Below, one piece after another: positions 38,781 through 41,770 of a DNA stretch of 56,130 nt. The position numbers and the translations under genes are program-made. Numbering within the stretch: position 1 is the stretch's first letter; each line of letters starts with the position of its first letter. The DNA is taken from positions 1 to 56,130 of the forward strand of contig JASEEV010000006.1 in the NCBI GenBank assembly GCA_030019435.1. Reading direction: 5' to 3'. The notes below the pieces were generated by a model. It was not told the DNA's origin and made no database searches. It saw only the letters and a list, made by a program, of their open reading frames with translations. The stretch comes from Methanocellales archaeon (lineage in GTDB: Archaea > Halobacteriota > UBA148).

Positions 38781-41770
38781 CTGGCAAATATGCCATCCGG
38801 TGAATGGCTCGGCTCAAGCGCTGATAAAGGGCGTGCCAAGCTGCGATAAGCCTCGGGTAGGTGCATGGAGCCTTAGAACCGAGGATCCCCTAATGGGAAC
38901 TCCCGCCTCCTTCGGGAGGCGATCCGTAAGGATCGGGAACGCCCCGGATTGAAACATCTTAGTAGGGGCAGGAAAAGAAATCGAAGAGATGCCGTTAGTA
39001 AAGGCGATCGAACACGGCACAGTTCAAACCGAATCCTTTTTCGAAAGAAAAGGGAGATGTGGTGTTATAAGTCGAGTCGAATACAGTCCAAACCAGTCAA
39101 GTCGAAGTCCTCTGGAACGGGGCACCAAAGAGTGTGATAGTCACGTAGACATACGCTGACGGATTGCGGCTCGATCTTGAGTACCGTTGCTTGGATATGC
39201 AGCGGGAATTTGGGAGGCACCAACTTCTAAAACTAAATACGTCTTGAGACCGATAGTGCAATAGTACCGTGAGGGAAAGCTGAAAAGCACCCCAAAAAGG
39301 GAGGTGCAAAGATCCTGAAATCGGATGGTGATGGAGCGATACGGCATGAAAGGAACTTCGATGCAAAGGAATCTGTCGCGAGGCAGTAGTACGAGCATCG
39401 TCGCCAGTGTCGTATCATACGTTTTGAAGAACGGGCCAGGGAATGTATTTGAGTGGCGAGACTAAGCTGGTAACAGCGCAGTCAAAGCGAAAGCGACAAG
39501 CATGCAACCTTCGGGCGAGGTGCGGCGTGTACAAGCGCGTGTAGTCACTGGGATACGACCCGAAACCGGGCGATCTAGGCGTGGGCAGGATGAAACGTGG
39601 CGAAAGCTACGTGGAGGTCCGCTAGCGGTGTTGATGTGCAAATCACTCGCGTGACCTGCGTCTAGGGGTGAAAGTCCAATCAAGCCCGGAGATAGCTGGT
39701 TCCTTCCGAAACATGTCGCAGCATGACCTGATCAGAGATAGTCAGCGGAGTAGAGCACTGATTGGGGGAGCCGGGCGGGAAACTGCTCGTCCTCTTGTCA
39801 AACTCCAAAACCGCTGTCGTCGTAGAAGATCGGAGTCGGGGCTGGGGGGTAAGCTTCCAGTCCGTGAGGGAGACAACCCAGACCGTGGTTAAGGTCCCAA
39901 AGTGTCGGCTAAGTGTTAACACTAAAGGGCGTCTCAAGCCCTAGACAACTGGGAGGTGAGCTTAGAGGCAGCTACCCTTTAAAAAGTGCGTAACAGCTTA
40001 CCAGTCGAGATTTGGGGTCCCGAAAATGGACGGGGCTCAAGCCGACCACCGATACCTCGGAGCATCGCAAGATGATCTTGTAGGAAGGCGTCCTGTGAGG
40101 GCAGAAGCACCTTCGTGAGGAGGTGTGGACCACATGGGAACGAAAATCCTGGCAATAGTAGCAGCATAGTCGGGTGAGAATCCCGACCGCCGGAGGGGCT
40201 AGGTTTCCTCGGCAATGTTCGTCAGCCGAGGGTTAGTCGGTCCTAAGACATTTCCTAACTGGAGAATGTCAAATGGGAAACAGGTTAATATTCCTGTACC
40301 GTTCAGCATACAAGGAGAAACTACGTTTCTCCCTTGACCCTCTTCCTTTAAGGGGTGTCAAGAGGGGCGAAGCCCCTTTGGACTAAAACCGACGCCTCAG
40401 GGTAGGTCGAGCAGTGTCGTCGCACTGTTCAAGCGTTGAAATCCATGGAGAGCCGTAATGGCGAGAAGTGGATGAATGCGTGATGAAGTAATTCGGCTGA
40501 TCCCAGGGGCCCGTGAAAAGGGAGCTGAACGTCCGTACCAAGAACTGACACAGGTGCCCCTGGTTGAAAAGACCAAGGCGTGTCGGCATAATCTGGCTAA
40601 GGTAATTCGGCAAATTAGCTCCGTAACTTCGGGAGAAGGAGTGCCTGCTTTGCAGAAAGCAGGTCGCAGTGACGAGGGAGCTCTAACTGTCTAATAACAA
40701 CATAGGGGATCGCAAACCCGTAAGGGCTAGTACGATTCCTGAATCCTGCCCAGTACAGGTATCTGAAACCTCCGTACAAGGAGACGAAGGACCTGTCAAC
40801 GGCGGGGGTAACTATAACCCTCTTAAGGTAGCGTAGTACCTTGCCGCTTAATTGGCGGCTTGCATGAATGGACCAATGAGAGCTCTACTGTCCCTAGCCA
40901 GAACCCGGTGAACTTTACATCCCAGTGAAGAGTCTGGGGACCCCTAATGGGAAGTGAAGACCCCGTGGAGCTTTACTGCAGCCTGTCGCTGGGCTGTGGT
41001 TTTGGATGTGCAGCGTAGGTAGGGGGCAGTGATCCGTCCTCGCCAGGGGACGGGGAGCCATCAATGAGACACTACCCTTCTGGAACTACGACCCTTACTC
41101 CGAGAGGAGGACCCCGATAGGTGGGCAGTTTGGGTGGGGCGCCACGTCCTAGAAAAGATATCTAGGGCGCCCTAAGGTTGACTCAGGTGGGTCAGAAATC
41201 CACTGTAGAGCGCAAGAGCACAAGTCAGCCTGATGTGATTTTCCACAGCAAGGAATCACGAGACGAAAGTCGGGTCTAGCGAACCATTATGCCTCCTTGG
41301 TGGGGGCTAATGATGACAGAAAAGCTACCCCGGGGGTAACAGTGTCGTCACCGGCAAGAGCACATATCGACCCGGTGGCTTGCTACTTCGATGTCGGTTC
41401 TCTCCATCCCGGCCGTGCAGCAGCGGCCAAGGGTGAGGTTGTTCGCCTATTAAAGGAGATCGTGAGCTGGGTTTAGACCGTCGTGAGACAGGTCGGTTAC
41501 TATCTGTTAGGGGTGTTTTGAGGTCTGAGGGGAAGTTGCCTATAGTACGAGAGGAACTAGGCAACGGTGCCTCTAGTCTATCGGTTGTCCGACAGGGCAT
41601 TACCGAGCAGCCACGCACCAGTGGATAAGGGCTGAAAGCATCTAAGCCCGAAACCACCCCTGAAAAGAGACCTCTAAAGGGCATTCTTAGAAGAAGAGTT
41701 TGATAGAGTCGGGATGTAAGCACCAAGGCAACGAGGTGTTCAGTCCGCGACCACTAACGCCCGAGCCAGT
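38781..41770 (+). rRNA. rrl: 23S rRNA (ends approximate) containing a ~72-nt insertion
   Basis: GGTGAATGGCTCGGCTC start region, GAAACATCTTAGTA, TAACTATAACCCTCTTAAGGTAGC, sarcin-ricin AGTACGAGAGGAAC, GCTGAAAGCATCTAAG. Confidence 0.98.
40311..40382 (+). repeat. Multi-hairpin insertion inside 23S rRNA
   Basis: GGAGAAAC-TAC-GTTTCTCC, CTTGAC..GTCAAG and AGGGGCGAAGCCCCT lie between GTACCGTTCAGCA and CTAAAACCGACG. Confidence 0.8.

Follow-up and report, generated by a model that had tools for sequence, protein, structure and literature searches.

Apparent recent insertion of a dispersed palindromic repeat into the only 23S ribosomal RNA gene of a Methanocellales archaeon

The stretch of DNA considered here, called the window, is a contig of 56,130 nucleotides (nt) (JASEEV010000006.1, positions 1 to 56,130, forward strand) from a Methanocellales archaeon (assembly GCA_030019435.1). 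The source genome, named G000 in the comparisons below, is a draft of 87 contigs and 1.42 Mb in which the window is contig C65. Its 23S ribosomal RNA (rRNA) gene contains in domain III a segment of 74 bases that related genes do not have. As judged from sequence comparison, this segment is an insertion, apparently recent, into the only 23S gene of the genome, and it is very likely a copy of a mobile, modular palindromic repeat that is dispersed elsewhere in the same genome. The reading that probably describes the whole case is that of a recent repeat insertion kept as a young, strain-polymorphic expansion segment.

An archaeal rRNA operon lies in the window and consists of the 16S gene (36838-38309), an intron-bearing transfer RNA (tRNA) gene for alanine, the 23S gene, an intron-bearing tRNA gene for cysteine, and the 5S gene. 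The copy number of the 23S gene in the assembly is one, and the flanks of the insert match only the contig of the window. The host gene and the insert are located as follows.

38776..41774, plus strand: 23S rRNA gene, host of the insert (Rfam LSU_rRNA_archaea, 2904 bits, model positions 1-2987).
40310..40383 or 40309..40382 (one-base ambiguity), plus strand: insert of 74 bases, delimited by the junctions in related genes, a 13-gene alignment, and DNA contigs.

The insertion site was searched with 411 bases around it against 31 genomes (G000 and 30 relatives), the 23S genes of G000 and 12 others were aligned with MAFFT, with extra blocks of at least 12 columns being reported, and the junction sequences were compared at 11 distinct loci. 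In G001, G004, and G005, which belong to the same family as G000 (family f1), a single base separates the flanks of the insert. No 23S match was obtained from the remaining f1 genomes, three drafts in which the rRNA may be unassembled. The junction in the kin reads CAGCA-N-TAAAAC, with N being A in G001 and G004 and T in G024, and G000 has CAGCAT and TAAAAC separated by the 74 bases. Removal of 40310-40383 leaves CAGCATTAAAAC, of the same length as the junction in the kin, and restores the host sequence. In the 13-gene alignment the 74-base block is the sole extra block at the site and belongs to G000 only, in agreement with the original prediction, which was made from the letters of the window and proposed an insertion at this place. 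A segment of similar length occurs in 0 of the 12 other genes, where the site measures about 8-45 bases against about 82 in G000.

The edges first proposed for the insert (40311..40382, about 72 nt) were slightly off, since the comparison with the kin gives 74 bases, either 40310-40383 or 40309-40382. These lie between GTACCGTTCAGCA (40296-40308) and CTAAAACCGACG (40383-40394). The second placement applies if the empty site had a C, and an empty allele with C is present among the DNA contigs of public runs. The dinucleotide TA is found at both ends of the insert, and the empty sites of the kin are one base too long for a simple duplication of TA.

The insert alone is predicted to fold at -38.5 kcal/mol (z = -3.9), with 0 of 200 shuffled sequences being equally stable. 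The minimum-energy fold consists of three hairpins (40314-40332, 40333-40362, and 40363-40377), as had been expected, and the proposed head-to-head arrangement of two units is equally clear, each half reading CAA(A)GG-hairpin-CYTTGAC(A)CCC with the second half reverse-complemented. Two inverted repeats are involved, GGAGAAAC/GTTTCTCC (8 nt, 100%) and GTCAAGAGGGGC/GCCCCTTTGGAC (12 nt, 83%). The ends CAAGG and CCTTTG can pair, giving a closing stem of only about 5 base pairs (bp). The parts of the insert are the following.

40311..40336, plus strand: unit A, with the hairpin GGAGAAAC-UAC-GUUUCUCC (core 40314-40332), extended by CAAGG/CCCUUG.
40333..40362, plus strand: middle hairpin formed by the tails of both units, CUUGACCCUCUU / AAGGGG-U-GUCAAG (minimum-energy fold).
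40357..40383, plus strand: unit B, reverse-oriented, with the hairpin AGGGGC-GAA-GCCCCU (40363-40377), which can be extended to 40357-40383.

The identity of the insert is revealed by its relatives elsewhere in G000, where 26 matches to the insert region are found, including the query itself (41 short BLAST segments). The recurring modules are A (GGAGAAAC-NNN-GUUUCUCC with a pyrimidine-rich tail), B (GGGGC-NNNN-GCCCC with flanks), C (CAGAAACC-NNNN-GGUUUCUG), and D (GGAAAUCGAAGAUUUCC). Hairpin A has 24 strict copies in the genome, 14 of them in or beside tRNA genes: six lie in introns of tRNA genes called by aragorn and eight within 350 nt of a T-arm motif. One further copy is that of the 23S gene, five are in stop-free stretches of at least 120 codons, one of which has been verified as a real gene, and four are elsewhere. 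With a looser A pattern the count rises to 32 loci, compared with 2 in a shuffled genome. The loose B pattern is not above chance (56 against 66 in the shuffled genome), so the copy counts rest on hairpin A and the BLAST matches. Unit B has a 32/32 identical copy in a tRNA intron (C8:9286-9317). A tRNA intron on contig C27 contains the two-unit arrangement at 87% identity, and a gene for an ABC-transporter ATPase contains it at 91% (C11:95848-95914). Among the copies inspected with their flanks, many are adjoined by pieces of tRNA genes, and the other repeat copies have no flank in common.

The presence of these copies elsewhere in the genome indicates that the insert is a mobile-repeat insertion, and not an rRNA structure that arose in place. 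The original prediction of a new expansion segment or an excised intervening sequence was right in recognizing a lineage-specific extra piece, and missed that this piece is a repeat of outside origin. An order-wide search (14 genomes, E ≤ 1e-6) for the 23S-type repeat gives 18 matches in G000, two each in G005 and G008, one each in G010 and G012, and none in the remaining nine genomes. With 18 matches in G000 and at most two in each of the 13 others, the family has multiplied in this lineage. It is unlikely that the other copies are misassembled rRNA fragments, since they are located on long contigs, in tRNA genes and in an open reading frame (ORF). Tandem direct copies of unit A, about 85-180 nt apart, are also seen beside runs of N (C87:24361-24590 and C44:55768-55887). 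Likewise, contigs of two public runs, X1 and X4, contain a joint that goes back 37 positions (40347 to 40311), as would be given by tandem A units somewhere in those communities. CRISPR repeats, promoters, and C/D boxes were considered as identities of the modules and dropped on inspection, because array spacing and box motifs are absent.

Elements of this kind have a bacterial counterpart in the Rickettsia palindromic elements (RPEs), insertions of which are also known in RNA genes. According to the excerpts of one paper on them, RPEs proliferate in particular lineages, in intergenic as well as coding sequence, as in-frame inserts that are missing from the orthologs (PMC1779305). Both families are short interspersed palindromic repeats, and the copy in the ABC gene, described below, behaves as the excerpted text reports for RPEs (PMC1779305). 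RPEs as portrayed there are, however, 100-150 bp long, bacterial, and found mostly in ORFs and spacers, whereas the units in G000 are about 30-74 nt, archaeal, and found chiefly in tRNA introns. Another parallel is offered by the expansion segments of archaeal and bacterial 5S rRNA, which in the part of the source available are presented as large, sporadic, and compatible with function, with a suggested spread via mobile elements (PMC7812874). They concern another rRNA, and no dispersed intragenomic repeat family is reported in that part of the paper.

Many tRNA genes of G000 called by aragorn have long introns at the canonical site (95-235 nt), built from a few recurring hairpin modules, although some of the calls are doubtful, such as those labelled 'Stop' and 'SeC'. 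Genes with long introns lie on contigs C2, C8, C9, C11, C18, C22, and C27 (for instance C22:16618-16926), and apparent extra introns in the D-loop are seen in a tRNA-Leu gene (C11:105673-105843) and a tRNA-Ser-like gene (C27:7863-8222). Split tRNA genes of the Nanoarchaeum type were considered and dropped, given that aragorn finds contiguous genes with long introns at the canonical site. The borders of introns and inserts were scored for the bulge-helix-bulge (BHB) motif in its canonical geometry, with two 3-nt bulges, a 4-bp central helix, and flanking helices, over 40x40 = 1600 border pairs. As controls, six tRNA introns of G000 are scored at 12.5-18 with the correct borders, a central helix of 4/4, and a lower helix of at least 5. 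The window itself contains the following modules and host RNAs besides the 23S copy.

38484..38522, plus strand: intron of the spacer tRNA-Ala gene, with a B-like hairpin at 38488-38503 (aragorn; BHB score 14.0, central helix 4/4, lower helix 5).
41830..41856, plus strand: B-like module GGTTTCAAGAGGGCGTAGCCCTTTGA, directly 5' of the tRNA-Cys gene (by eye only).
41894..41941, plus strand: intron of the tRNA-Cys gene (41857-41977), with the A-type hairpin GGAAAAC-TAC-GTTTTCC and its tail (BHB score 13.5).
42028..42053, plus strand: module E, GAGATTCTGAGCGAAGAATCGAGGAG, in the spacer before the 5S gene, 26/26 identical to a piece of the RNase P RNA.
45215..45634, minus strand: RNase P RNA, 420 nt against a model of 288 positions.

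Filled and empty orthologous sites can be compared at four places: the 23S gene, the tRNA-Cys intron, the RNase P RNA, and the linker of the ABC gene. The tRNA-Cys gene without the hairpin measures 87 nt in G010 and G012 and 94 nt in G008, and with the A-type hairpin 119-122 nt in G007, G001, G004, and G005 and 121 nt in G000. The RNase P RNA of G000 has an insert of 79 nt in the P3 loop and a block of 28 nt with the 26-nt module E (45385-45410), both of which are absent in nine relatives. The RNase P RNAs of the relatives have different inserts, in other loops. The P3 insert differs from units A and B, and its sequence recurs elsewhere in G008, G009, and G013.

Some related 23S genes have inserts of their own. 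Those of G007 (L009 2711-2764) and G008 (L007 2710-2761), which belong to different families, contain 54 and 52 nt, respectively, in the loop of a highly conserved domain V hairpin, between GTGCAGCA and GCGGCC, where the empty site corresponds to about position 41422 of the window. This insert includes a module-C-like hairpin, CAGAACCTAAAGGTTCTG, and its borders come near to a BHB: the central helix is 4/4, the upper helix measures 7 (G007) or 5 (G008), and one unpaired U precedes a lower helix of 5 bp. The insert, probably a true mini-intron, is absent in G010 and G012, which are congeners of G008. The 23S gene of G001 has a 34-nt insert (L024 825-858, about position 39507 of the window) that replaces a short hairpin loop of G000, and no BHB is found at it (best score 11.0).

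The copy in the ABC gene shows what becomes of the repeat inside a messenger RNA. This near-full copy (C11:95848-95914) lies in frame within an ORF of 430 amino acids (L043, C11:95071-96360) whose product is an ABC-transporter ATPase with a fused C-terminal domain. The linker specified by the repeat includes LPRRNYVSPSTLFLKGVSRGLSSFVV. The orthologs of G010 and G012 contain the repeat at 91% and 90% identity to the 23S insert, that of G008 is without exactly the 21-nt A hairpin, and those of genus g2 (G001-G005) have a decayed repeat of equal length or 12 nt shorter. In family f2 and in G022 the linkers are shorter and unrelated. One compensatory change, from A-T to G-C, is found in the unit A hairpin of the ABC copies. 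The two-unit stretch in this gene is 69 nt by manual count, a multiple of three, so the frame alone is uninformative on translation. The frame is, however, open in all nine f1 and f3 genomes, including those with decayed hairpins, and the insertions or deletions of 21 and 12 nt are both multiples of three, indicating that the repeat is translated in this gene and not spliced. On the evidence of these reading frames, the repeat is not self-excising. The G000 fusion protein shares 88-91% identity with its counterparts in genus g4 (family f3) but only 76-78% with those in its own family, which hints that the gene was laterally transferred together with its repeat, or else that evolutionary rates are uneven.

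The elements of the host around the site are the following.

40279..40296, plus strand: conserved hairpin ACAGGUUAAUAUUCCUGU, 5' of the site (about Rfam model positions 1512-1530), kept in 11 of 11 loci.
40300..40307, plus strand: 5' strand of the host helix, CGUUCAGC, paired with 40524-40531 (minimum-energy fold of 40297-40536; Rfam structure line).
40524..40531, plus strand: 3' strand of the host helix, GCUGAACG (minimum-energy fold of 40297-40536).

The domain III helix downstream of the GGUUAAUAUUCC hairpin has an internal loop immediately above its base, and this loop is the insertion point. The earlier assignment to domain III is thereby confirmed, the site following that hairpin at position ~1526 of the 2987 of the Rfam model. 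The Rfam consensus is unpaired at the site, its structure line has a long-range helix identical to the CGUUCAGC/GCUGAACG pairing, and its alignment leaves 83 bases unaligned after CGUUCAGC. In the predicted fold of 40297-40536 (-100.8 kcal/mol, z -5.3) this 8-bp host helix is intact and the three hairpins of the insert form separate branches, so that in the model the insert is compatible with the host helix. Among the loci compared, the site measures about 8 nt in family f1 and about 25 nt in families f2 and f3, the latter two having a hairpin of ~15 nt there; it reaches about 45 nt in G026 and about 82 nt in G000. The conserved hairpin 5' of the site is presumably helix 53 (H53); a blastn search of window 40225-40300 against E. 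coli genomes gave no match, so the helix numbers are tentative. By analogy with known ribosomes, the site would be a peripheral, length-variable, outward-facing loop, the surface location being taken from papers on the insertions H54a and ES20L and from the tentative helix numbers.

An outward, length-variable site and three hairpins that fold independently suggest a tolerated addition, and retention of the insert in the mature rRNA as an expansion segment is accordingly held to be somewhat more probable than its removal. Several points weigh against this reading. The host helix is only presumably the base of helix 54 (H54), and the site only presumably the loop of H54 that bears expansion segment ES20L. 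A yeast insertion at H54 is named 'ES26' in one of the H54a papers, as far as their excerpts go (PMC5737476 / PMC3286452). No transposase, terminal repeat system, or target duplication linked to the modules was found, the Y1 family of transposases having been examined. The filled site has 0 matches in genome and metagenome contig collections, from which records of the window's own genome were possibly excluded. The remaining points come from public read data: no run holds the whole stretch, the best being RNA run X1 with 0.69 of the sampled words and three DNA runs with 0.51, and all four consist of assembled contigs instead of raw reads. In X1 the contigs identical to the window on the flanks have depths of about 1276-1405, the bins of the insert only 84 and 93, and two contigs join 40309 directly to 40384 (CAGCAT/TAAAAC) with a summed depth of 1292 and a shorter side of 27, a joint that is seen in 0 of the 3 DNA runs.

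What is presumably the same site accepts additional RNA in other lineages. The excerpts of two papers describe the mycobacterial H54a, also called the 'handle' or 'steeple', as 100-110 nt of RNA beside H54 that is retained at the ribosome periphery (PMC5737476, PMC3286452). Both H54a and the insert in G000 are extra RNA adjoining H54 (presumably so for the latter) in domain III. As far as the excerpted text goes, H54a is bacterial, forms a single long helix, occurs in several actinobacterial genera, and has no reported origin from a repeat element. The insert in G000, on the other hand, comprises three short hairpins, is found in one genome and one contig spanning the 3' junction, and has copies elsewhere in its genome. 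ES20L, which is found in archaeal and eukaryotic ribosomes, has been modelled in Pyrococcus furiosus, where, according to the available part of the source, a second L14e copy touches its tip (PMC3553981). ES20L is small and inherited, in contrast to the insert in G000, which is an unrelated 74-nt repeat. Family f1 has lost a hairpin of the ES20L type, leaving CAGCA-N-TAAAAC, and G000 then gained the repeat at that place.

The DNA runs show that the site is variable in nature. A contig joining 40307 to 40382 is found in 3 of the 3 DNA runs, with differences from the window at 40249 (T), 40250 (G), and 40417 (C), and a close relative without the insert thus exists as DNA. Parts of the insert that are uncovered in some runs were left out of the evidence. 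In DNA run X4 a contig of 61 nt (40353-40413) with a single mismatch spans the 3' junction, 31 of its bases lying in the insert and 30 in the rRNA, the filled form having about one fifth of the depth of the empty form. The filled form therefore exists outside this assembly, and X4 may be related to the source sample.

The alternative to retention that survives best, although it is unlikely, is that the insert behaves as an intron, that is, a relative of the tRNA introns that moved into the rRNA and is precisely excised without a canonical BHB, the exons being religated to CAGCAU/UAAAAC. The X1 joint speaks in its favor, as it is seen in RNA only and at the depth of the flanks, with the insert itself at a low depth (84-93). 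So do the start of the insert (ACAAGG-hairpin), which resembles the start of a tRNA intron in G000 (ACCAAAGG-hairpin), and the near-BHB insert in domain V of G007 and G008. The joint is, however, a weak hint, since it fits precise removal and ligation and equally a close strain without the insert that has T at N: its shorter side falls under 30, below which joints are flagged as often coming from another organism, its 'between' entry reads 'not known', and DNA alleles that have no insert and a different base at N occur commonly. The base N is already A, C, or T among the kin, and the presence of the insert is polymorphic in X4. The comparison of metatranscriptome coverage that had been suggested for this locus was possible at the level of contigs, with the insert at a depth far below the ~1300 of its flanks, in a run that may or may not contain the insert-bearing strain. 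The last bin of the insert in X1 has a depth of 661, partly from contigs that start at the 3' edge.

The lack of a splicing motif argues against an intron. The best BHB score at the 23S insert is 10.0, below the null of 11.8±1.1 for 300 random places in the 23S gene (maximum 14.5), and the BHB scan finds no mutual pairing of the exon flanks and hence no lower helix. The canonical BHB intron is therefore rejected, and the original observation that no clear BHB motif is present is upheld. The only splicing endonuclease gene of the genome is one ORF of 373 amino acids with two PF01974 domains (C29:1595-2392). This single two-domain enzyme is presumably of the alpha'2 type, which requires a strict motif, and so speaks against removal without one. 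Reading of the two-unit repeat as protein in the ABC gene is a further objection. BHB introns are known in the archaeal 16S and 23S genes of Thermoproteales, and transposition of tRNA introns has reportedly been proposed in archaea. Like those introns, the insert is lineage-specific, does not alter the exon sequence, and is related in sequence to tRNA introns. It differs from them in having no BHB, in lying in a variable peripheral loop and not in the conserved core, and in belonging to a repeat that is translated in an ORF. A bolder form of the idea is quite unlikely: that the hairpin modules are mobile elements at the RNA level, moving between tRNA introns, rRNA, RNase P RNA, and messenger RNA, and that the 23S copy is a new type of archaeal intron, removed and religated precisely without a BHB, with the X1 joint as its spliced product.

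A second alternative, also improbable, is that the insert is an intervening sequence of the bacterial type, excised without religation and leaving a 23S rRNA in two pieces that are held together in the ribosome. Sporadic, strain-polymorphic inserts of about this size are known in bacterial 23S genes to be cut out without religation; they occupy the loops of helices H25 or H45, RNase III cuts their long closing stems, and the rRNA ends up in fragments. The low depth of the insert in X1 would be explained in this way, and the insert shares with the bacterial sequences its sporadic occurrence, its variability between close strains, and its size within about 70-150 nt. Its closing stem is nevertheless only about 5 bp (CAAGG/CCUUUG), with no long processing stem, and no pile-up of molecule starts or ends is listed, which contigs cannot show for RNA ends in any case. 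Moreover, if the G000 strain is present in X1, the contiguous joint at matching depth favors ligation.

That a repeat copy was mis-threaded into the rRNA contig by the assembly is very unlikely. The draft consists of 87 contigs, the element is repeated, and the filled site is in no other record of the collections. On the other side, the rRNA resumes exactly on both sides of the insert within a contig of 56 kb, typical reads exceed the element in length, the X4 contig bridges the 3' junction with one base different from the window, and the insert is identical to no other copy (best 91%). It is scarcely credible that the insert is an ordinary, vertically inherited variable helix, even with a site whose length varies by tens of bases in archaea, as it is absent from three 23S genes of the same family and from all 12 others and has 87-91% identity to copies outside rRNA.

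The preferred explanation is thus that of a short, non-coding palindromic repeat, made of two head-to-head hairpin units, which would have been inserted recently into the only 23S gene. Its family has multiplied in this lineage, mostly in the discarded parts of stable-RNA transcripts, such as tRNA introns and rRNA spacers. Having landed in an outward, length-variable loop, and with hairpins that fold by themselves, the insert would stay in the mature rRNA. Its movement may have involved an uncharacterised transposase, template switching driven by the hairpins, or gene conversion. Among the mobile elements of the genome, an IS200-type element was rejected as the parent of the repeat, its multi-copy ends (hairpin GGGCAGGC...GCCTGCCC) being unrelated to the modules. 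Its transposase gene is located as follows.

C75:5158-5511, minus strand: intact gene of a Y1 transposase (IS200-type).

The flanks of this gene recur at the ends of contigs C44, C87, C29, C12, C30, and C57, and an active multi-copy insertion sequence probably fragments the assembly. A second IS200-type copy, on contig C14, matches in two separate pieces.

A narrow search of the full-text literature found no report of such a repeat-derived rRNA insert, which does not show that the phenomenon is unpublished. Expansion segments are usually known as old and fixed, and the first entry of a helix has mostly been deduced from 'insertion fingerprints'. In the present case the family that donated the insert, close relatives with an empty site, and a natural presence/absence polymorphism are visible together, so that the origin of an expansion segment in a selfish palindromic repeat can be tested directly. 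In this archaeal lineage of small genomes, short hairpin modules remodel the genes of stable RNAs, from tRNA introns of up to 235 nt and an RNase P RNA of 420 nt to spacers and the 23S gene. The content of tRNA introns is thereby linked with inserts in rRNA, which bears on a shared mobile ancestry of archaeal introns and rRNA inserts.

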